A stretch of 64,000 bases of DNA from a virus (lineage: Duplodnaviria > Caudoviricetes): positions 712 through 64,711 of IMG/VR virus record IMGVR_UViG_3300034356_001766; one strand, given 5' to 3'. Positions 9,482 to 27,136 of the stretch are shown here, piece after piece. The position numbers were made by a program, and so were the translations under genes. Within the stretch, counting starts at the first letter, position 1. Every line of letters begins with the position of its first letter. The notes below the pieces were generated by a model. The model did not search any database. It saw only the letters and a program-made list of their open reading frames with translations, and was not told the DNA's origin.

Positions 9482-9514
9482 AGGATTAAGCTACTATCCT
9501 AATCATACTGTAGC
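9482..9514 (+). promoter_or_regulatory. Candidate H-type pseudoknot upstream of queC
   Basis: AGGAT(9482-86)/ATCCT(9496-9500) and GCTAC(9490-94)/GTAGC(9510-14). Confidence 0.45.
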
Positions 9515-9532
9515 AGTTTTAATTAAAGTTAT

Positions 9533-10465
9533 ATGGAAATAGAAAATAAAGTAGGATGTCACTGCGTAGTGAGTCTATCCGGAGGAATGGATTCCTCTAC
9601 GTTGCTGCTTAAGGCATTAACTGAATTTGATACTGTCACGGCAGTTTCATTTGACTACGGTCAAAAGCACAGAGTAGAGCTTGATCGAGCTCAAGATTTG
9701 GTAAACTATCTAAATGGCAGAGCTGATGAGACTAAGTATAAAAGTGATTTAGCAGAAGTTATTATGCATCACTTCCCTAAAGTCAACTACCAGGTAATTA
9801 AGCTTGATGGCCTGAGCCAGCTCCTAAACTCGGCCCTAGTAACAGGAGGTGCCGAAGTTCCGGAAGGTCACTACGCATCCGAGAATATGAAAGCGACAGT
9901 AGTACCTAACAGAAACAAAATTTTTAGCTCAATCACCCAAGCCATCGCTTTATCTATAGCAAATGAAAAACAAGAAGACTGCTCCATCGCCCTTGGAATC
10001 CACGCCGGAGACCATGCCATCTACCCTGACTGCAGACAAGAGTTCAGAGACGCTGACGACCACGCATTTCGTATGGGTAACTGGGATAGCGATCGGGTAT
10101 CTTATTGGACTCCTTACCTGGATGGTGATAAGTTCACTATCCTAGAAGACGGAGAGAAGTTGTGTAAGGAGCTAGGGCTTGACTTTGATGAAGTATATTC
10201 ACGCACTAATACTTCCTACAAGCCAATCCTTCTAGAGGTAGAATCAGACACCCCAGGAAAAAAAGTAATGAATGTAGGTATGTGGAATCAAGGCTACTAC
10301 AAATGGTACTCAGATTATAAATCAGCTTCATCAGTAGAACGAGTTGAAGCATTTATCAAGCTAGGGCGTCCCGATCCTGCACCTTATGCTGATGAGACCG
10401 GCCCTGTGACTTGGGAGCACGTAGTAGGGGAAGTCTCAAAGGTTCTTGCAGCTGTAGAGAAATAA
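9533..10465 (+). CDS. queC: 7-cyano-7-deazaguanine synthase
   Basis: SGGMDS, FDYGQKH, TVVPNRN and YPDCR motifs; the C-terminal Zn cysteines are absent (TNTSYKP...SDYKSASSVER). Confidence 0.95.
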   Translation: MEIENKVGCHCVVSLSGGMDSSTLLLKALTEFDTVTAVSFDYGQKHRVELDRAQDLVNYLNGRADETKYKSDLAEVIMHHFPKVNYQVIKLDGLSQLLNSALVTGGAEVPEGHYASENMKATVVPNRNKIFSSITQAIALSIANEKQEDCSIALGIHAGDHAIYPDCRQEFRDADDHAFRMGNWDSDRVSYWTPYLDGDKFTILEDGEKLCKELGLDFDEVYSRTNTSYKPILLEVESDTPGKKVMNVGMWNQGYYKWYSDYKSASSVERVEAFIKLGRPDPAPYADETGPVTWEHVVGEVSKVLAAVEK

Positions 10466-10509
10466 TTTAAAGAGAGCTTGTCTCTCCCACTATTTATAAC
10501 TATATTTAG

Positions 10510-10538
10510 AGTGTCGGAGCACCACTATAAAAACACCC
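10510..10538 (+). ncRNA. preQ1-I-riboswitch-like aptamer, copy 1
   Basis: AGTG-TCGGAGCAC-CACT-ATAAAAACA-CCC; starts just after promoter TATATTTA (10501-08) and ends 1 nt before ATG 10540. Confidence 0.55.
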
Positions 10539-10539
10539 A

Positions 10540-11133
10540 ATGAAAAAGTTACTTCTATTTTTGCCCTTAATCTGGGCTTGTGAAACGATCGAGCCAGCTG
10601 CTCCTGAGCCATGCCAGGAATGCATCACCTCCCATCGCGTGGACACAGTCCAGCATCCCGGCACCTACCTCCAGGACGGATACTGGCATTTAAAGTACTC
10701 CGGCCTTATCTACTTCCAGGTCATAGGTCAGCTAGATTCCATACATCCTAGATATGTTATAAATGGAGTACCCTTATTAGAAGTAACATATGATAGCGAT
10801 ACCTGGTATGTGTTTGATACCATTGCTATGCAAATACCTCTATACTCTCCTTTTACCTCACAGTACACCTCCCCGAACTTTAACTACCCCATCTCGGTAG
10901 GAGATACTACGATCTATATCACCAATCCTAACTACATTGTAAATGCGGTAGGGTACTCGTTCGGGAGTACAAATTTTGTAAATGCTATGCATACATACCA
11001 GCCCCGGTGCGAGGTCCTAGTATTCGAAGAAATGATTGGAGATACGATCTCAGTTTTCATCCGCACACGGTACAACTACGATACCGGTAAACAAAAAATA
11101 GTAGGAGACACACTTAAAGTTATAATAGAATGA
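10540..11133 (+). CDS. Predicted lipoprotein of unknown function
   Basis: MKKLLLFLPLIWAC lipobox. Confidence 0.7.
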   Translation: MKKLLLFLPLIWACETIEPAAPEPCQECITSHRVDTVQHPGTYLQDGYWHLKYSGLIYFQVIGQLDSIHPRYVINGVPLLEVTYDSDTWYVFDTIAMQIPLYSPFTSQYTSPNFNYPISVGDTTIYITNPNYIVNAVGYSFGSTNFVNAMHTYQPRCEVLVFEEMIGDTISVFIRTRYNYDTGKQKIVGDTLKVIIE

Positions 11134-11387
11134 GCAAAAAACAGCTGCTGACCGAACCGGTCCTCCCTAAGGAGAGAATCCTTACTTCCAGGTTCCTGAA
11201 CCCTGAATTTGTACACACCACAAAGAGTCTAGAGAAGATGCCTGACCAGAAGTGGCACCAGATCATCTCCTTCATCAAGTCCGGAGTGAGGATTGTAGGT
11301 TACGGAATCATTCCTTTCGATTTGGTAGCTGCGGCGATCGTTCTTATATTTAGTGAAGTGATCGGCATTATCGAAGAACTGGTTTAA
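11130..11387 (+). CDS. Small membrane protein
   Basis: H..ISFIKSGVRI...EVIGIIEELV hydrophobic C-terminus. Confidence 0.65.
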   Translation: MSKKQLLTEPVLPKERILTSRFLNPEFVHTTKSLEKMPDQKWHQIISFIKSGVRIVGYGIIPFDLVAAAIVLIFSEVIGIIEELV

Positions 11388-11397
11388 AATTATTAAA

Positions 11398-11859
11398 ATG
11401 AGTTATCAAGCAACTAAAGTATTTGACGGCTACTCGACGGTGTTCCGTCAATGGAAAGCTGAAGGGACTCACTGCCGATTCCTACACGGGTACGGAGTAA
11501 GTCTCAAGGTATGGTTCGAAGGCGAACTAGACGAAAGGAACTGGGTATGGGATTTCGGAGGTATGAAACGTGCTGTAGGTAATATAGACGGAATGAATCC
11601 TAAGACATGGATGGATTATATGCTCGATCATACCACCATTATAGCCGAAGATGATCCTGAGCTTGAAAACTTTAAAGCAATGCACGAGAGAGGACTTATT
11701 CAGTTGAGAGTCATCCCTGCTACGGGAGCAGAACGCTTTGCAGAATACTTCTACGGGAAGTTAAACGATTTCGTCCAGGCTGAGACCCAGCACCGGGTGA
11801 GAGTAGTCCAGGTAGAGTTCCGGGAGCATGAGAAGAATACAGCAATTTATAAATCATAA
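11398..11859 (+). CDS. queD: 6-carboxy-5,6,7,8-tetrahydropterin synthase
   Basis: HCRFLHGY, WDFG, LDHT and E..KNTA motifs. Confidence 0.92.
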   Translation: MSYQATKVFDGYSTVFRQWKAEGTHCRFLHGYGVSLKVWFEGELDERNWVWDFGGMKRAVGNIDGMNPKTWMDYMLDHTTIIAEDDPELENFKAMHERGLIQLRVIPATGAERFAEYFYGKLNDFVQAETQHRVRVVQVEFREHEKNTAIYKS

Positions 11860-11861
11860 CC

Positions 11862-12644
11862 ATGGCATTAAAGAGAGTTGAAGATTATAGTAAGATTCTA
11901 CCTATTGTAGAGCTTTATACCTGTATACAGTCGGAAGGTTCAAGAGCAGGTAGACCGACTGTCGCCGTTAGGACTACCGGCTGTACTCACCGCTGCTACT
12001 TCGGTGAAGGGGGCTGGTGCGATTCTTGGTATACTAGTATCCATCCTGAGAAAGGTAAATATAGTTTTCAAGATATTATTAATATTTACGATGCTAATCC
12101 TGAAATTAAGGAGATGATGCTTACGGGAGGTTCTCCTACTATGCACCCCGCAATCGTGAACGAACTAACTCACTTTGCAAATGAAAGGCAAATCATCATT
12201 ACTATTGAGACTGAAGGCTCTGCTTTCCTCGAAACTGATTACCCTATTGGCCTTATTAGCTTCAGCCCTAAATTTAGTAATAGCGTACCTGTTTTGGGAG
12301 CTACTACACCCTTAGGAAGTACTGTAGATCAAAAGTTTATCGATACTCATAATCGCTTTAGACTCAATAAAGATTCTATTAAGCAGTCAATGGCTTACCA
12401 TTCTGACTATCATATGAAGGTAGTTGTTAATCCAGTTGAACATCCAGATGTTTGGACTGAGATTAGATCATTTATGGATGAGCTAGAGGTACCAAAAGAC
12501 AAGATATGGATTATGCCCCCGGGTGATAATCGTGAAGAACTAATCCGTGTTTACCCTATGGTGATTAATTGGTGTACTGCTAATATGTACAACTTCACAG
12601 GCCGGGAACATATCATTGCTTTTGATACTAAAAGAGAAGTCTAA
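11862..12644 (+). CDS. queE: 7-carboxy-7-deazaguanine synthase (radical SAM)
   Basis: IQSEG, RTTGC-x3-C-x7-CDS (expanded cluster motif), TGGSP, IETEG and SPK. Confidence 0.93.
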   Translation: MALKRVEDYSKILPIVELYTCIQSEGSRAGRPTVAVRTTGCTHRCYFGEGGWCDSWYTSIHPEKGKYSFQDIINIYDANPEIKEMMLTGGSPTMHPAIVNELTHFANERQIIITIETEGSAFLETDYPIGLISFSPKFSNSVPVLGATTPLGSTVDQKFIDTHNRFRLNKDSIKQSMAYHSDYHMKVVVNPVEHPDVWTEIRSFMDELEVPKDKIWIMPPGDNREELIRVYPMVINWCTANMYNFTGREHIIAFDTKREV

Positions 12645-12823
12645 TGCCTTACATAATTCTTAAACACACCACCATCAACGGTAGTCCCAGGACTATCCTT
12701 GTAAACGATAGTGAAGGAATTTGTATGGAGTTTACCACTTTTGAAAGTGCTGCTAAGCTAGCAGAGCTTTTCCAGGCCAACTCTACCTCCGGGAATATCT
12801 ACGAAATAAAAGAGCTAAAATAA
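12644..12823 (+). CDS. Small hypothetical protein (59 aa)
   Basis: Hand translation MPYIILKHTTING...IYEIKELK; start overlaps the queE stop. Confidence 0.5.
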   Translation: MPYIILKHTTINGSPRTILVNDSEGICMEFTTFESAAKLAELFQANSTSGNIYEIKELK

Positions 12824-13002
12824 TGCCGCACAACTACCTTCAGGTACTTCATCAGCTATGGGCTCTTAAGATCCTAGAACCTTCCGGCATCATAGCCGCT
12901 ATACATCCTTACGGATACAGACTAAACTACATCACCCTTGACGGTTTAGGGGTAGAGAGTGAGAATGAAAAGTTTCAATTCAAGCACGGAGTCCGGTAAA
13001 GC

Positions 13003-13191
13003 ATGAAACTCGGAGAGACAATAAACGTAGGAGATGATTGGTACAAAATTTTTAGAACAGTTAGAGAAGATCGCCAATGGGATGCTGAACTTCTTAAACA
13101 GTACTGGTTTTGTACACATACCTTCCGTAAGGATGGTGTGCTCTATTTTTGTAGAGAGATACCGAAAGTTGAATTTGAAGAAATAATTTAG
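13003..13191 (+). CDS. Small hypothetical protein
   Basis: ORF in array. Confidence 0.55.
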   Translation: MKLGETINVGDDWYKIFRTVREDRQWDAELLKQYWFCTHTFRKDGVLYFCREIPKVEFEEII

Positions 13192-13275
13192 TGTTTTTAG
13201 AAACTAACTTAATATGAAACGTTTTATCAACAAACTTATAAGAGCATTTTTTAAATTTATTCAATACCACTAGCA

Positions 13276-13869
13276 ATGAAAAAATTACTACTCCTACTTT
13301 TACTTCCTATCTCTCTTTTTGCACAGCTACGAGATAGCGTCTATTTCAACAATACCCATTTCGTTATAAACTACTCCGAAACTCTGGAAGGACCAAGATC
13401 TATTCGATATACGGTACTGTGTCCAACCGGGACAGCCTCAAGATCGGGTATGGAATTCTATAAGGAGAAAAAGATTCATACTTCAGACCACAAAGATTAT
13501 GAAGCAAATGTATGGGATAAAGGACATATGGTTCCTGCTGCATCATTCAACTGCAACCGAGATATGCTATTCTCTACCTTTACTTATATAAACTCTAGCT
13601 TGCAGCACCAAAGCCTTAACAGAGGAGTTTGGAAGAAGCTCGAGGTCCGGGAAAGAGAATTAGCTACAAAAGGAAGTTTAAGGGTCTTTATTAGAATAGA
13701 GTACCCGACTGAACCCGTCAGAGTTACTACCGGTGCTGCTATACCTTTAGGGTACTACAAAGAAATAAAAGTTGGAAATAACAGAGAATGTTACTATTTT
13801 AAGAACGTGCAACCGAACACATCAGATCTTCAGACTTATAAATGCCCATGCAGAAATGTTATTAAATAA
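13276..13869 (+). CDS. Secreted DNA/RNA non-specific endonuclease
   Basis: Signal peptide, WDKGHMVPA and LNRGVWKKLE motifs. Confidence 0.9.
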   Translation: MKKLLLLLLLPISLFAQLRDSVYFNNTHFVINYSETLEGPRSIRYTVLCPTGTASRSGMEFYKEKKIHTSDHKDYEANVWDKGHMVPAASFNCNRDMLFSTFTYINSSLQHQSLNRGVWKKLEVRERELATKGSLRVFIRIEYPTEPVRVTTGAAIPLGYYKEIKVGNNRECYYFKNVQPNTSDLQTYKCPCRNVIK

Positions 13870-14375
13870 TGCGTAACCTTTTTACACCTCAGGAAATAGA
13901 TCTTAAGATTAAGATAATAGCTAAAAAGATTTCTGCCGAACACCAGGGAGATAAAACTCCCGTAGTCATGGTAGGGCTTCTCAATGGAGCGTTTATGTTC
14001 TACTCAGACTTAGTACGTAATCTATCAATTGACGTAGAGTGTGATTTTATAAGAGTCAAAAGCTATACAGCCCAGTTTAAGCAAGGTGATATCAAGATAC
14101 TTAAGGACTTAGAGACTCCTATCAAAGGTAAGCACGTATACTTGGTAGATGATATATATGATACCGGCACTACTATGAAAGCACTAATTGAGTACCTAGA
14201 GGTTAAGAAGCCTGCCTCTATCTCGATTGTAACTCTACTTCGTAGAGAAACTTCTCCGACTCCGGAACAAACCTCCTACCATGCCTTGTCTATCAAAGAT
14301 GAATGGGTGGTGGGTTACGGGATGGATGATGAAAACGGTTATTCAAGAAATTTAGATGGAGTGTTTGCACTCTGA
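13869..14375 (+). CDS. hpt: Hypoxanthine/guanine phosphoribosyltransferase-like protein
   Basis: GLLNGAFMFYSDL, YLVDDIYDTGTT and WVVGYGMD motifs. Confidence 0.92.
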   Translation: MRNLFTPQEIDLKIKIIAKKISAEHQGDKTPVVMVGLLNGAFMFYSDLVRNLSIDVECDFIRVKSYTAQFKQGDIKILKDLETPIKGKHVYLVDDIYDTGTTMKALIEYLEVKKPASISIVTLLRRETSPTPEQTSYHALSIKDEWVVGYGMDDENGYSRNLDGVFAL

Positions 14376-14399
14376 GATAAGTTTCGTATATTGTACAAC

Positions 14400-14428
14400 G
14401 GTGTCGTAGCACCACCTTAAAAACACTA
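14400..14428 (+). ncRNA. preQ1-I-riboswitch-like aptamer, copy 2, upstream of folE
   Basis: GGTG-TCGTAGCAC-CACC-TTAAAAACA-CTA; loop TAG can pair with tail CTA; lies between promoter TATATTGT (14387) and ATG 14435. Confidence 0.65.
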
Positions 14429-14434
14429 ATTAAT

Positions 14435-15145
14435 ATGGCAGATAAAAAGCACTATGATGTTGAACTAGCTAAAGCCGGGTTCGCTAACGGCATCTCTACC
14501 CAGCTCGCTGATAAGTTCAAGAAGCATAAGATGATCGATATTCATCTTTCCGAGCAGGAGAAACACGCCATCATCCAAGACGCTGCACAGGCGTTTGGAA
14601 AGTTCCTAGATGCGCTAGGTGTTGACTGGAAGAACGATCCTAACTCCTCCGACACCCCTAACCGAGTTGCTAAGGCTTACGTAAACGATTTATGGGCTGG
14701 ACGATTCAATCCTATGCCCGCTATCACGGCATTCCCTGCCGACGACTACGACGGGATAGTCTTTGAAGGTAATATTCCTTTGACCTCTATGTGCTCCCAC
14801 CACCACCAAGCCATTCAAGGCCGGGTTCATATCGCTTATATCCCAGGTCCAGGCGGTAAAGTGATCGGGCTATCTAAACTAAACCGGGTAGTAGAGCATT
14901 TCGGCCGCCGAGGAGCAATCCAGGAACAGCTTACAGTCGCCATCCATAACGCAGTCAATACCGTTTGCGAAGATAACATCGGTGTAGCTGTTATGATTGA
15001 AGCTACTCACAACTGTGTTTCCTGCAGAGGAACAAAACACGCAGGAGCCTCTATGAAAACTTCTAAGTTATCAGGAAGCTTCTTAAACGAAGACTCAGCC
15101 CGTGCTGAATTTTATGAATTTGTAAAAGGATACTCATGCAAGTAA
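14435..15145 (+). CDS. folE: GTP cyclohydrolase I
   Basis: DTPNRVAK, SMCSHH, GLSKLNR, IQEQLT and HNCVSCRG motifs. Confidence 0.97.
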   Translation: MADKKHYDVELAKAGFANGISTQLADKFKKHKMIDIHLSEQEKHAIIQDAAQAFGKFLDALGVDWKNDPNSSDTPNRVAKAYVNDLWAGRFNPMPAITAFPADDYDGIVFEGNIPLTSMCSHHHQAIQGRVHIAYIPGPGGKVIGLSKLNRVVEHFGRRGAIQEQLTVAIHNAVNTVCEDNIGVAVMIEATHNCVSCRGTKHAGASMKTSKLSGSFLNEDSARAEFYEFVKGYSCK

Positions 15146-15639
15146 AAAGAGTAAAATTTGTTGATGAAGTAGAAGTATTCAACAAAACGTTCGGTAAGCC
15201 TAACAACTACACCCCTACCGTCCCTAATGATAAAAAGCTTACTGACTTTGTAGTTAGCTTTATTAGAGAGGAGACTGATGAACTTGAGCAGGCCATCAAG
15301 GATAAAGATATCGTTGAGGTACTGGACGCGATATGTGATCTTCTGTATGTCGCAGTCGGTAATGCTACTATGGTCTTCGGACTCAAGGATAAGCTAGTCC
15401 CGGCCTACGCCGAGGTACAAGCCTCGAATATGTCTAAGAGCTGTGCTACTGTTGAAGAAGCTGTAGCTACCATCAATGAGAGATCTAAAGAGCATGGGGA
15501 GTGTTACTTCCGAAAGGTTGGTAGCCGATATGTTGTCTATCGGAAGTCTGACGATAAGGTTATGAAGTCCATAAACTACTTCGCCCCTAACCTCGAGCAA
15601 TTCTTTACCGAAGAAGAAATTAAAAAAGCCAAGCAATGA
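15136..15639 (+). CDS. MazG-like all-alpha NTP pyrophosphohydrolase (PRA-PH/DR2231-like)
   Basis: IREETDEL, EVLDAICDLLYV, EVQASNMSK and KVMKS motifs. Confidence 0.85.
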   Translation: MQVKRVKFVDEVEVFNKTFGKPNNYTPTVPNDKKLTDFVVSFIREETDELEQAIKDKDIVEVLDAICDLLYVAVGNATMVFGLKDKLVPAYAEVQASNMSKSCATVEEAVATINERSKEHGECYFRKVGSRYVVYRKSDDKVMKSINYFAPNLEQFFTEEEIKKAKQ

Positions 15640-15824
15640 CACCCCAGGAATTAATCGATCAAAATAAAACTTTCTCAGAAGAGTTGCAGCAATGGATTGT
15701 ACCTCTTATCTTTGTAGACGAAGCTCTTAGGATGAAAACTGCTCAGGAGGTCGACCAGAGTATTAAACAGCTTGAAGAAGTAATGCAAGAATTAAATTCA
15801 GTAATTAATAAGATAAATGATTAA
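15636..15824 (+). CDS. Small hypothetical protein
   Basis: Overlaps both neighbours. Confidence 0.55.
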   Translation: MTPQELIDQNKTFSEELQQWIVPLIFVDEALRMKTAQEVDQSIKQLEEVMQELNSVINKIND

Positions 15825-16647
15825 GATAGCTCATGAAGCTCCAAAAGCCATCTTCGGTAAGATGCAAGAACTTACTGATTACGATTATGCTTTAGTGCAT
15901 CTCTTTGAAGAAGATCCTGAATACCTTCAGCAGTTCAAAGACGCTTTAGCAGCAGGCAGGGAGGTTATCTTAGATAATTCTATCTTTGAACTTGAAGAAG
16001 CTTTTGATGCCGAACGTTTTACTTACTGGATCAACGAACTTAAGCCAACCTGGTATATTGTTCCTGATGCATTAGAGAACGTAAAGAAGACTATGTCTAA
16101 TATGGCAGAGTGGAATGTTAGGTATGCTCACAAAGTACCCGTTGAATGTAAGAAGATTGGGGTTGTGCAGGGTAAGACTTATACCGAGCTCGCTAACTGC
16201 TACGATCACATGATCAATTCAGCTCAAGTTGATATGGTTGCTATCTCTTTTGACTACAGTTACTACGAGGAGAAGTTTCCTCACCCTAATAAGTACGTCA
16301 GCTGGATGCTGGGTAGGGTTCAGCTACTAGGTCGGATGCTTAAAGACGGAGTAATTAATACTGATATGCCTCATCACCTTCTAGGTTGCGGACTACCTCA
16401 AGAGTTTCAATTTTACCGCGAAGCTAATTATGATTGGATTTACTCCTTGGATACTTCCAACCCAGTAGTCCACGGCCTGAAAGAGGTCTACTACAAGGAT
16501 CAGGGGCTATGGAATAAAGAATCTCAGAAACTCTTTACCATGATTAACTCTGAAGTAACTTCTACTCAGATGGAGGTCATTCGTCATAATGTCTCACGCT
16601 TTAGATGGTTTGCAAATGGAAACGCGCAAGTGGGTAGCATTCTTTAG
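15817..16647 (+). CDS. TGT-fold TIM-barrel protein, DpdA3-like 7-deazaguanine insertion enzyme
   Basis: ILDNS, IVPD, GVVQG, HLLG and SLDTSNP motifs typical of TGT/DpdA relatives; lies inside the que cluster. Confidence 0.75.
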   Translation: MIKIAHEAPKAIFGKMQELTDYDYALVHLFEEDPEYLQQFKDALAAGREVILDNSIFELEEAFDAERFTYWINELKPTWYIVPDALENVKKTMSNMAEWNVRYAHKVPVECKKIGVVQGKTYTELANCYDHMINSAQVDMVAISFDYSYYEEKFPHPNKYVSWMLGRVQLLGRMLKDGVINTDMPHHLLGCGLPQEFQFYREANYDWIYSLDTSNPVVHGLKEVYYKDQGLWNKESQKLFTMINSEVTSTQMEVIRHNVSRFRWFANGNAQVGSIL

Positions 16648-17152
16648 TCAGACTGGTTCCGAGATCGTTCAGATCTCAGAAGCACTGGGCCGATGGCCGG
16701 ATATGATTATTACCAATCGCCGGCCTGAGTCTGCTAGGATTATTAATTCCGGGATACCTGAAGATAAGATTTATTATACCTCCAATAGTCCTGAGGGGTA
16801 TGAGTATTTTCATTACCTCTGTCAGGTACAAGATCCGATAGTTACTCTTCACGGATGGCTGAGAGTAGTACCAGAGGAAATTTGTACTAATTACGAGATG
16901 TATAACGGACATCCAGGACTTATAACCAAGTACCCTGAACTCAAAGGTAAAGATCCTCAGATCCGAGCCTTCCAAGGAAATTATAACACAGGAGGTTGCG
17001 TTATTCATAAAGTAACTCCCGGGGTAGACGAAGGAGAGATCCTTATGGAAAGAGAAGTAGGAATCAGGCTGTTGGATCATGAGGGTTTATTTCGTATCTT
17101 GCATAAGACTTCGGTAGATATGTGGGTAGAATTCCTTAAAGAAAGGTTATGA
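16616..17152 (+). CDS. PurN-like formyltransferase (DpdN-like preQ1 formyltransferase)
   Basis: FFSQTGS, GWLRVV, YNGHPGL and GCVIHKVTPGVDEGEI motifs. Confidence 0.85.
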   Translation: METRKWVAFFSQTGSEIVQISEALGRWPDMIITNRRPESARIINSGIPEDKIYYTSNSPEGYEYFHYLCQVQDPIVTLHGWLRVVPEEICTNYEMYNGHPGLITKYPELKGKDPQIRAFQGNYNTGGCVIHKVTPGVDEGEILMEREVGIRLLDHEGLFRILHKTSVDMWVEFLKERL

Positions 17153-17667
17153 TTAAGAGATTGGCATTAGTAGGGGCTAGCAGTACCGGTAAAACGACTG
17201 TGTATGAGCTGCTTAAGAATCAGCTCCCTAAGTGGGAGTTTGTAAATGAAAGTACCCGGAGGGTAGCTCGGTATGGCTTCCCTATCAATGAACTCGGCAC
17301 TACCGAAACTCAGTTAGCTATCTCAAGCTTTCATCTAGAGGCATTACTCAAACCTTACAACCTGATCTTAGACCGCTGCTACTTAGACTTAGTAGTTTAC
17401 TCCCGTCATATGCCCGGACTCTCCCAGTCCGGTCTAGAGTACATAGAAGATACTTGGAAGAGAGTCCAGGATGAATATACCCACTATATTTATTTCCCTA
17501 TCGAGTTCCAGGCGATCGATGACGGAGAAAGAAGTGTTGACGAAGATTGGAGAAAGATCATCGATCAAGAATTTAAATACCAGTTGGATCAGACTGACAG
17601 GCATTACCTGGCTGTGACCGGCTCACCTATGCAGAGAATAAATCAAATCCTTAAATACATTAAATAA
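17149..17667 (+). CDS. P-loop nucleotide kinase-like protein (AAA_28/NadR type)
   Basis: GASSTGKTT, LDRCYLD and DDGER motifs. Confidence 0.8.
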   Translation: MIKRLALVGASSTGKTTVYELLKNQLPKWEFVNESTRRVARYGFPINELGTTETQLAISSFHLEALLKPYNLILDRCYLDLVVYSRHMPGLSQSGLEYIEDTWKRVQDEYTHYIYFPIEFQAIDDGERSVDEDWRKIIDQEFKYQLDQTDRHYLAVTGSPMQRINQILKYIK

Positions 17668-18581
17668 TGGACCATAATAAGAACCAAAGTGCAGTTGTAG
17701 AGATTGCAAGCAAACACCTCGGCCAGGTAGGAGGTGCCGGGTACTCCGATCAGTACGATCCTTCGCTGCTGGTTGCGATCCCACGTTACCTAAACCGAGA
17801 GGCTTACGGCATCAAAGAAGAGAGCCTACCTTTTATAGGAGTGGATGTCTGGAATGCTTACGAAGTCTCGGCGATCACTAAGAAAGGATTACCGGTAGCA
17901 GGGATGCTTAAGATTGTATGTCCTGCCGACTCACCTTTCCACGTAGAGTCAAAGTCAATCAAGCTTTACCTAAACTCTTTTAACATGACTGCTTTCGGTG
18001 AGACTGCTAGAGAGTGTATCGAGTTTATCGAAAGTCAGGTCTCTAAAGATCTTACCGACCTCCTGCAAGGAGAGGTGACTTGTAAGTTTTTTACCAGTAA
18101 CGATATTCACGAGTATCAGTTTGTAGAGTTTACTCCCCTCGGTGCTTTGGTTGATCTGGATGCAGTAGAGTTTACTTCCTTCCATTCTGATGCTACCCAG
18201 CTTAAGATCTGGCATACAAAAGAGGATGTAGTAGTTAAGAAGATTGAATCTGATCTACTTAGATCTAATTGCCGGGTGACCAATCAGCCGGATTGGGGTG
18301 ATGTTTATATTCATATGATTGGTAAGAACGTTCCTGATGAGGCATCACTGGCCCAGTACATAGTCTCTCACCGCCAGGTATCTCACTTCCACGAAGAGAT
18401 TTGTGAGATGATCTTTACCCACCTTACTGAGGCTTATCAGCCTGAAGGTCTGATGGTAGCATGTCTTTACACCCGAAGAGGAGGATTGGATATTAACCCT
18501 ATCCGATCAACGCACGCTAATCTGATCCCGGGCTGGTACAAAGATCCTACCAAGCGGATGAAGAAAACTTTACGACAATAA
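17667..18581 (+). CDS. queF: NADPH-dependent preQ0 reductase, two-domain type
   Basis: VESKSIKLYLNSF, RSNCRVTNQPDWG, FHEEICE and YTRRGGLDINP motifs. Confidence 0.96.
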   Translation: MDHNKNQSAVVEIASKHLGQVGGAGYSDQYDPSLLVAIPRYLNREAYGIKEESLPFIGVDVWNAYEVSAITKKGLPVAGMLKIVCPADSPFHVESKSIKLYLNSFNMTAFGETARECIEFIESQVSKDLTDLLQGEVTCKFFTSNDIHEYQFVEFTPLGALVDLDAVEFTSFHSDATQLKIWHTKEDVVVKKIESDLLRSNCRVTNQPDWGDVYIHMIGKNVPDEASLAQYIVSHRQVSHFHEEICEMIFTHLTEAYQPEGLMVACLYTRRGGLDINPIRSTHANLIPGWYKDPTKRMKKTLRQ

Positions 18582-21559: not shown

Positions 21560-21841
21560 ATGACAAGAGGAAAAAAAGTTGGGCATATTAAGCCGCAAAT
21601 TACCATTAAGGATGAGATGATCAATCCTTACTACGTTAGTGTAGATGAGAATCAATTCACCGTTCAGATCGAAGGTTCTACTCTCCCGTTAGGGTACTAC
21701 AGTACTCTGGAAGTAGCTATCAAACGTATCGCAAAATATAAGCTTGTAGAGAATCTTAATCAGTCTACTGTTGACTTGAACAGCTTCCTTAAGGCTTACG
21801 ATTCCATTCTAAGTCAAATCAATAACAGAATCCCAGTATGA
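21560..21841 (+). CDS. Hypothetical protein
   Basis: ORF after promoter TTTG(21509)-N20-TATCTTTA(21533). Confidence 0.65.
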   Translation: MTRGKKVGHIKPQITIKDEMINPYYVSVDENQFTVQIEGSTLPLGYYSTLEVAIKRIAKYKLVENLNQSTVDLNSFLKAYDSILSQINNRIPV

Positions 21842-26338: not shown

Positions 26339-26412
26339 GGTCCGGTAGCTCAGCTGGATAGAGCATCGCACTTCTAATGCGACGGTCGAAGGTTCGAATC
26401 CTTTCCGGATCA
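26339..26412 (+). tRNA. tRNA-Arg (TCT)
   Basis: Acceptor GGTCCGG/CCGGATC, anticodon arm TCGCA-CTTCTAA-TGCGA, T-loop GGTTCGAATCC; no encoded CCA. Confidence 0.95.
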
Positions 26413-26433
26413 CTACATCCCCAATTTTAACAC

Positions 26434-26507
26434 GCGCCTTTAGCTCAGTCGGTTAGAGCAAGAGACTCATAATTTCTTGGCCGGGGGTTCGAGCCCCTCA
26501 AGGCGCA
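26434..26507 (+). tRNA. tRNA with CAT anticodon (elongator Met or Ile2)
   Basis: Acceptor GCGCCTT/AAGGCGC, anticodon loop CTCATAA, T-loop GGTTCGAGCCC. Confidence 0.9.
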
Positions 26508-26784
26508 CTAATTTTAAATCCGTTTTTTATGACTAAGTTCGAAAAAAGCTTCTACATCCTTCTGTTTGTGCTCTTTGGGGCAGCACTTGGATTCAATATC
26601 GTTGAAAAAGATTACTCGGAAGGGGTCTGGGTGATGATTGCTATCATCTGGATGTACAACTCCTACAACCTTGCCAACAAGTTAATGAAATAAAAGTTGG
26701 TTTATAGGATATAAGTTCCTATATTTATAACTTGAAGAGACCCAGACGTGTGCTTTATTTTTGTTTAATTTAATTCTTTTTTTT

Positions 26785-26952
26785 ATGAAGAAGTTTTTTG
26801 CAGCGATTGCTCTTGTTACTTTGGTAGCAGCTTGCAACACCGCCACCGAAGAAGCTGTCGTAGTAGAGGGCGCAACTGACACTACAGTTGCTACCGACAC
26901 TCTTGCAGTAGAAGAGGTATCAGCAGAAGGTGTCGAGGCAGCAGCTGAATAA
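26785..26952 (+). CDS. Small acidic Ala/Thr/Glu-rich lipoprotein
   Basis: MKKFFAAIALVTLVAAC lipobox; promoter GTTG(26696)-N20-TATATTTA(26720). Confidence 0.75.
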   Translation: MKKFFAAIALVTLVAACNTATEEAVVVEGATDTTVATDTLAVEEVSAEGVEAAAE

Positions 26953-26972
26953 GCTAGCCCTGATCCGATAAT

Positions 26973-27051
26973 AGGAGGGCACAGCAGCATCTGCAACCCA
27001 GAAGTGGAGTCAAAAGCCAAGCCGGTGGAAGCCCGGGCCACTTGCCCTCCT
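26973..27051 (+). ncRNA. Candidate structured ncRNA before tRNA-Thr
   Basis: Closing stem AGGAGGGCA/TGCCCTCCT, inner stem AAGTGG/CCACTT, hairpin CCGG-TGGAAGC-CCGG. Confidence 0.45.
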
Positions 27052-27063
27052 TCCGTTATATTA

Positions 27064-27136
27064 GCCTCCTTAGCTCAGTTGGTAGAGCCACTGATTTGTA
27101 ATCAGTAGGTCGTTGGTTCGAGTCCGACAGGAGGCT
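27064..27136 (+). tRNA. tRNA-Thr (TGT)
   Basis: Acceptor GCCTCCT/AGGAGGC, anticodon arm ACTGA-TTTGTAA-TCAGT, T-loop GGTTCGAGTCC. Confidence 0.95.

Follow-up and report, generated by a model that had tools for sequence, protein, structure and literature searches.

The window analysed here, a 64,000-nt stretch of DNA, is nearly the whole of a 64.7-kb IMG/VR virus record (IMGVR_UViG_3300034356_001766; the record is 39% complete), and its closest cultured relatives are the Flavobacterium phage immuto isolates. Within its 7-deazaguanine gene cluster we find two copies of a short leader motif, one directly preceding folE and the other heading a run composed of a 197-aa open reading frame (ORF), an 85-aa ORF, queD and queE. 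The motif is real and strongly conserved, and we consider it probable that it is a miniature preQ1-I-like (class I type II) translational riboswitch, sensing preQ1 or preQ0 and used in pairs. This reading is carried by the conservation of the motif, its association with pathway genes, the covariation of its stem P1 and the match between its invariant bases and those of the preQ1-I ligand pocket.

The motif was first noticed in a prediction made from the letters of the window, which knew of no account of riboswitch control of phage DNA hypermodification. Our literature search, with McCown et al. 2014 and all supplements outside its scope, likewise turned up no report of riboswitches in the 7-deazaguanine clusters of phages. 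In the available passages of a 2024 review of preQ1 riboswitches (PMC11625349) the words phage and virus occur 0 times, as do riboswitch, regulat- and promoter in the available text of the preprint on phage immuto (10.1101/2023.04.13.536721; supplements and published version outside scope).

Two copies in the window and a family in viral contigs

Element 1 (AGTG-TCGGAGCAC-CACT-ATAAAAACA-CCC) occupies positions 10510 to 10538 of the + strand and is separated by one base from the ATG at 10540, while element 2 (GGTG-TCGTAGCAC-CACC-TTAAAAACA-CTA), on the same strand, occupies 14400 to 14428 and is followed after six bases by the folE ATG at 14435. Rereading the sequence confirmed both elements as they had originally been described, ending 1-6 nt before an ATG, and Pfam searches bore out the genes assigned to them, folE behind one copy and the queD-queE run behind the other. 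In element 1 the two strands of P1 (AGUG, 10510-10513, and CACU, 10523-10526) enclose the loop UCGGAGCAC (10514-10522) and are followed by an A-rich segment, L3 (10527-10533), an invariant C-A (10534-10535) and a tail (10536-10538). In element 2, P1 is formed by GGUG (14400-14403) and CACC (14413-14416) around the loop UCGUAGCAC, and the 3' part comprises L3 (UUAAAAA), C-A at 14424-14425 and the tail CUA. The exact 15-nt core, GTGTCGNAGCACCAC, has 2 occurrences in the whole 64 kb. Allowing up to three mismatches yields 7 matches against 1.89 expected, and the five extra sites are unrelated, with 3 mismatches each. Elements 1 and 2 are the only two copies of the motif in the window.

We searched viral contigs for the motif in two ways. 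A scan in which loop and tail were fixed and P1 was left free recovered at least 113 loci. Among the matches listed, 61 of 113 had a fully complementary 4-bp P1, and all 61 had an ATG within 15 nt; the other 52 had 0-3 complementary positions and mixed spacer lengths. A second scan, with both P1 strands unconstrained, recovered 56 loci (43 with four of four pairs, 1 with three and 12 with none), 44 of which are members of the family. Members from both scans lie just before the ATG of folE, queD, queE or unknown genes that head queD-queE operons, and P1 pairing and gene context go together in the raw scans. When motif and N-terminus of the following protein were considered jointly, there were 56 distinct combinations. 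The protein was a homologue of the 85-aa protein (hereafter the small protein) in 35, FolE in 14, QueD in 2, QueE in 1, the 197-aa protein in 2, unknown in 1 and truncated in 1. For the 35 small-protein combinations, queD was the next gene in 28, was not seen within the flank in 4, and could not be looked for in 3 with too short a flank. Among the 56 combinations we saw no copy before a gene outside the 7-deazaguanine neighbourhood.

A set of 80 viral FolE loci, picked by protein similarity with the motif ignored, gave the same picture: the motif stands directly before folE in 24 of the 80, and at the remaining 56 folE follows a short leader and an ordinary TTTG...TTATATTA promoter. In this FolE-ascertained set the 24-nt core has a mean pairwise identity of 0.891, compared with 0.476 in the 26 nt upstream and 0.539 in the first 60 nt of folE. 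The conservation upstream of que and folE genes that the original prediction called for is thus present, in the form of a large family that is strand-specific and lies just before start codons.

The number of copies varies between phages. With a covariance model, R1, built from 29 distinct copies (elements 1 and 2 score 45.4 and 49.3 bits, respectively), we found no further copies when 57 sources were searched over ±2.5 kb around folE. Four large phage genomes carry two strong copies each, 2.3-3.6 kb apart and at the same two positions as in the window; phage immuto has a single copy, in front of folE. Related phages therefore occur naturally with two copies, one copy or none.

The family is found almost only in viral contigs. 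A strict 20-base pattern run over 185,579 prokaryote species genomes gave one match, locus L204 (NYWG01000135.1), on a 5.9-kb contig of a Verrucomicrobiales metagenome-assembled genome. The match comes with a phage-type promoter box and the start of a small-protein gene, so this contig is probably phage DNA that was binned into the assembled genome. A 46-nt BLAST query of the commonest form of the motif against 50,697 phage records returned noise only, its best hit being rejected as lying on the opposite strand in a structural module.

A scan for variants at loop position 8 returned 16 loci, 7 of them family members; these include four examples of a known lipoprotein-type leader (L267, L268, L271 and L277) and a folE leader with G8 (L279). 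In a 170-kb viral contig (L281, 301-323) a diverged copy precedes a diverged folE, with the loop UCGCAGUAC, C8 and a P1 of UGUG/CACU in which the first pair is U-U, hinting that the family extends beyond the patterns scanned. The last of the seven (L274, 301-323), in an unrelated 6.9-kb viral contig, has four of four P1 pairs (UCCG/CGGA) but falls within an ORF and is followed by no ATG; it may be due to chance.

Stem P1 and the preQ1-I pocket

The original prediction had pointed to a difference in P1 between the two window copies, A-U in one and G-C in the other. This difference is real, and the 4-bp P1 covaries in the wider family as well. In an alignment of 41 distinct rows (A2), which was fitted to the model and had some rows chosen for pairing, P1 is paired in 99.4% of cells. 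The first pair is AU in 22 rows, GC in 13 and UA in 5, the third is UA in 29 and AU in 11, and the second and fourth are invariant G-C. The covariation score of P1 is 0.476, compared with 0.116 in shuffles, and was reached by 0 of 500 shuffles. Five fully paired P1 haplotypes (AGUG/CACU, GGUG/CACC, GGAG/CUCC, UGAG/CUCA and UGUG/CACA) require at least 4 double substitutions between them.

Around this variable stem the bases are rigidly held. In 59 distinct leaders G4, U5, G7, A9, G10, A12-C13, A24 and A26 are invariant, A12-C13 in the family alignments A1 and A2 as well. The G4-C14 closing pair does not vary either, and L3 always contains 5-7 adenines, which is also true of the 24 FolE loci picked without regard to the motif. 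In the preQ1-I aptamer of Thermoanaerobacter tengcongensis (Tte) a 5-bp P1 is combined with a 2-nt L1 and a 4-nt L2 that ends in the specificity base C15, and P2 has four steps, two Watson-Crick pairs plus G8-A31 and A10-A32 (PMC3905878). The Tte ligand forms a Watson-Crick pair with C15 and is also contacted by A29 and U6; the 2'-OH of G11 lies nearby (PMC8222354). According to passages of the 2024 review, the closing-pair G5 is conserved and reads the 7-aminomethyl group of preQ1, and the 3' strand of P1 in type II is preceded by AC (PMC11625349). Threaded one position below Tte, the phage family places its invariant bases on these published contact and pocket positions, which also explains the invariant C-A that follows the A-tract.

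The motif shares with type II riboswitches (translational in Tte, transcriptional at Bacillus subtilis queC; RF00522) both a general build, namely a short hairpin with an A-rich tail in a preQ1 synthesis leader, and, as far as the passages cited above describe them, the bases that define preQ1-I. The latter are all kept: the G-C closing pair, a U as first loop base after P1, the loop AG within G-N-A-G, A-C before the 3' strand of P1, and an A-tract followed by C-A. It differs from the same descriptions in having a P1 of 4 bp rather than 5 and an L2 of 3 nt rather than 4-6, and from Tte in an L3 of 5-7 adenines without a C insertion and a total length of ~28 nt rather than 33-34. Unlike type II, moreover, the phage motif has no Shine-Dalgarno sequence in its 3' strand, serves a pathway whose product goes into DNA and not tRNA, and lies in viral contigs only, with the exception of the one short metagenome-assembled-genome contig.

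Type III riboswitches (Escherichia coli; PMC10622847) likewise have AC before the 3' strand of P1 and act on translation, and they are described as having the smallest and most stringent class I consensus (PMC11625349). They differ in the UU beside the 5' strand of P1, in an AAGG Shine-Dalgarno sequence buried by Watson-Crick pairing, and in being almost confined to Pseudomonadota (PMC11625349); the phage motif has UC where type III has UU, and a variable tail.

Proposed mechanism and alternative explanations

As a preQ1-I-like aptamer, the RNA would be ~28 nt long, with a 4-bp P1 closed by the invariant G-C, a 2-nt L1 (UC), the segment G-N-A-G and a 3-nt L2 ending in the invariant A-C, the C of which would pair with the ligand. 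L3, with its 5-7 adenines, would dock in the groove of P1, and the invariant C-A would pair with the loop through G10-C25 and G7 with A26. As ligand we propose a free 7-deazaguanine base from the phage's own pathway, preQ1 and/or preQ0. Throughout the family 4-11 nt separate the end of the aptamer from the start codon, which leaves no space for a terminator and makes control of translation initiation likely.

Translation in Bacteroidota generally starts on A-rich leaders rather than by Shine-Dalgarno pairing. Where the host lineage seldom relies on such pairing, the compact fold of the bound RNA would hide the A-rich leader needed by the ribosome and would thereby lower translation of the first cistron and, via overlapping stop and start codons, perhaps that of downstream genes too. 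Element 2 would throttle folE, and perhaps the genes from dpdA through queF, and element 1 the ORF-queD-queE run. Conservation, gene association, P1 covariation and the pocket-base match are what we observed; ligand, direction of control and propagation along the operon are what we infer.

In copies of the CAC type, ViennaRNA prefers a shifted hairpin in which positions 1-5 pair with 10-14 (4-5 bp, tetraloop CGUA/CGGA; window 14400-14413 and 10511-10522). We rejected this hairpin as a conserved structure because it is impossible in AAC-type copies and lacks covariation (a slide of -3 pairs 67.1%, with a covariation score of 0.000). The shifted hairpin would tie up G10 and the specificity C, and according to this folding model it may be the ligand-free conformer in the CAC subtype. 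Taken at its fullest, our reading would be of the smallest natural riboswitch known (~28 nt, 4-bp P1), a class confined to phages that descends from preQ1-I or resembles it by convergence and needs no Shine-Dalgarno sequence, acting by folding away the A-rich leader. Used in pairs, it would give the virus metabolite feedback on a base that fully replaces G in its DNA, with a ligand preference that is possibly shifted and the competing CAC hairpin possibly serving as ligand-free state. We offer this combination tentatively, and doubt that every part of it holds.

Several observations weigh against a preQ1-I-like riboswitch. The aptamers described in passages of PMC3905878 and related papers have a 5-bp P1 and a 4-6-nt L2, and those passages include no functional one as small as the phage motif. 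The Rfam PreQ1 model, RF00522 (45 positions, cut-off 39 bits), gave no match at gathering over the window and none at E<=10 over 161-nt and 47-nt stretches at the elements or over the whole 64.7-kb record, so that the check suggested with the original prediction was negative at any threshold offered; the miss is probably due to the deletions in P1, L2 and L3. Weak matches to Histone3, dfrA-dnaX, GP20-a, isrF and mir-4005 (8.6-18.3 bits) were discounted as noise. The variation in P1 rests on few independent events, and two of its four pairs never vary. In addition, the motif is absent from five genomes of related phages (three at least 95% complete), which indicates that the element is dispensable. 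These zero-copy relatives (G005-G009; loci L158, L170, L199, L190 and L165) are 115-160 kb in size, their FolE is ~70% identical, and their folE has a plain TTTG...TTATATTA promoter with a leader of ~17 nt.

The pseudoknot stem P2 adds to these objections. As first drawn (NAG with CNN), its outer pair was said to covary, which is literally true of the two window copies but fails across the family: pairing is seen in 44.8% of cells, and of 29 sequences 4 can form the middle pair. Aligning the leaders of related phages thus upheld P1 and not P2 in the proposed register. We also rejected a pairing of G7-C27 and U8-A26, as folE-type leaders mostly have A at position 27. In a Tte-like register G10-C25 and G7/A26 are invariant and hence uninformative on P2. 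The sole variable pair in that register joins N8 to the second base after C-A; 46 of 59 leaders allow it, compared with ~67% expected from base frequencies, and it fails in the C8 variant L281. P2 is accordingly unproven, and the fold beyond P1 is one that we infer.

A last objection concerns where transcripts might begin. The original prediction placed a promoter element close to each copy, and boxes matching the consensus do lie just upstream of both, although such matches are as frequent in shuffles (13.8) as in the region itself (14). Before element 1 the site is TTGTCT-17-TATATT (10478-10506, + strand), with TATATTTA at 10501-10508. Before element 2 it is TTTGCA-17-TATATT (14364-14392, + strand), which can also be written TTTG-N19-TATATTGT and then extends to 14394; it shares a tttcgTAT(A/C)TT box with sites before the ORFs at 21560 and 26151. 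The box nearest to element 1 ends 1-3 nt before P1, so that a transcript from it might start inside P1 and be deprived of the 5' strand; either another start is used or this copy works within a longer transcript. The box before element 2 ends 5 nt ahead of P1, and its position in the sequence suggests that transcription from it would start at or near the first base of P1. Contigs from lake-water RNA libraries span both elements (for example 10435-10704 and 14247-14556; four runs, region 9500-15200), and as these are assembled and possibly DNA-containing they indicate no start, strand or level.

In those runs (X19-X22) the contigs are 90-99% identical to window positions 9500-15200. Relatives represented there lack 15 nt at 11186, where the small protein has its variable N-terminal part, and differ in sequence between queC and the 197-aa ORF.

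The least improbable alternative makes the motif an RNA operator to which a phage or host protein binds as a translational repressor, with the RNA itself sensing no small molecule. Protein-bound translational operators have a covarying stem with an invariant loop just upstream of a start codon, an anatomy that the motif shares, and the unproven P2 and the several uncharacterised small genes that travel with the motif would suit such an arrangement. A position-by-position match of the invariant bases to the preQ1-I pocket, A-tract and C-A included, would however have to be coincidence, and no candidate RNA-binding protein was identified, the commonest neighbour having a hydrophobic tail and no known fold. 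We regard a protein operator as unlikely.

A second alternative keeps the fold and changes the ligand to another guanine-like compound of the pathway, such as free formyl-preQ1, 7-carboxy-7-deazaguanine or guanine. All bases published as contacting preQ1 in the passages cited are retained, including the closing-pair G that reads the 7-aminomethyl group, and we accordingly give this alternative a decidedly low probability, even though both L2 and P1 are shorter (P1 by one pair) than those of described aptamers, and altering conserved positions of the pocket can change which ligand is preferred (PMC11625349). These phages also carry a DpdN-like formyltransferase; the preprint on phage immuto, in its available text, leaves open whether formylation takes place on the free base or on DNA (10.1101/2023.04.13.536721).

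It is very improbable, in our view, that the leader senses nothing at all, its 5' hairpin stabilising the mRNA and its A-rich stretch being the ribosome landing site typical of Bacteroidota-type leaders. Such a hairpin needs neither nine invariant loop bases nor an exact A5-CA, and it would not be expected at two pathway operons only, as seen with the two strong copies in a complete 176-kb phage genome and the two in the window. This holds despite the A-rich character of motif-less folE leaders and the weakness of P1 alone, the folding energy of which is unremarkable (z-scores -2.35 to +0.96). Finally, the promoter-like boxes within a few bases and the short inverted repeat inside the motif might suggest that a transcription factor recognises it at the DNA level, as an operator or promoter element. 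This is scarcely credible given that orientation to the gene is fixed, that the ATG always follows at 4-11 nt while the distance to the TATATT box ranges from 3 to ~18 nt, that compensatory changes keep the arms complementary, and that the asymmetric 9-nt spacer is invariant.

The gene cluster and the meaning of the motif

The window encodes a full 7-deazaguanine route, comprising folE, queD, queE, queC, queF, dpdA and a dpdN-like gene (identified with Pfam, and DpdA by identity to immuto). The cluster runs from queC through element 1, the 197-aa ORF, the 85-aa ORF, queD, queE, small ORFs, a nuclease gene and a phosphoribosyltransferase gene to element 2, and continues with folE and genes for a MazG-like protein, DpdA, a formyltransferase-like protein, AAA_28, QueF and DNA polymerase A; most of its genes have overlapping or abutting ends. 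In phage immuto the same gene set replaces dG with formyl-dPreQ1, as reported in the available text of the preprint (10.1101/2023.04.13.536721). Gene set and order match between immuto and the window, and the immuto copy of the motif, of the GGAG/CUCC type (NC_055915, 32364-32392), stands before folE; unlike the window, immuto is without a second copy before queD.

Upstream of element 1, and so behind neither element, lies queC (9533-10465; PF06508, E 8e-37), on the + strand like the other genes given with coordinates here. The first cistron behind element 1 (10540-11133) encodes the 197-aa protein, which has a signal-peptide- or lipoprotein-like N-terminus with a CxxC near the start and homologues behind the motif at two other loci (L027 and L030); we found no Pfam or PHROG family for it. 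In the lineage of the window this gene is inserted between the motif and the gene for the 85-aa small protein (11130-11387), which in most relatives is the first gene behind the motif. The members of the small-protein family are 60-107 aa long, with a variable N-terminus, a conserved PDxKxHQxxSFIKSGxRIxGY motif and a hydrophobic tail, and queD is usually the next gene. The family comprises 1047 protein clusters at E<=0.001, its nearest Atlas clusters are all viral, and no Pfam or PHROG family was found for it either. There follow queD (11398-11859; PF01242, E 5e-16) and queE (11862-12644), a radical SAM gene that scores 28.2 bits against a Pfam cut-off of 29.5 and is syntenic with the annotated QueE of immuto.

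The last gene before element 2 encodes the phosphoribosyltransferase (13869-14375; PF00156), in the same order as in immuto, and the first behind it is folE (14435-15145; GTP cyclohydrolase I, PF01227, E 3e-44). Gene calls and Pfam matches define a tightly packed, mostly overlapping run behind folE (15136-18581), made up of genes for a MazG-like pyrophosphohydrolase (15136-15639), a 62-aa ORF, DpdA (15817-16647; 276 aa, 68% identical to the annotated immuto DpdA), a DpdN-like formyltransferase (16589-17152), an AAA_28 kinase-like protein (17149-17667) and, last, QueF (17667-18581). Three clustered tRNA genes are found further along the window (26339-27136, + strand; 68.5-69.5 bits), and immuto also carries tRNAs near its que genes.

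For annotation, the motif represents a whole family that the standard Rfam model misses, and it marks two uncharacterised protein families as probably belonging to the 7-deazaguanine pathway; one of the two numbers over 1000 sequence clusters. Phages with two, one and zero copies constitute a natural experiment on the purpose of the control. If the RNA binds preQ1 or preQ0, it would be the first case found of a virus that governs its own DNA hypermodification by a metabolite-sensing RNA; it would also lower the minimum known size of a natural aptamer and provide a clean model for riboswitch control of Shine-Dalgarno-free translation.

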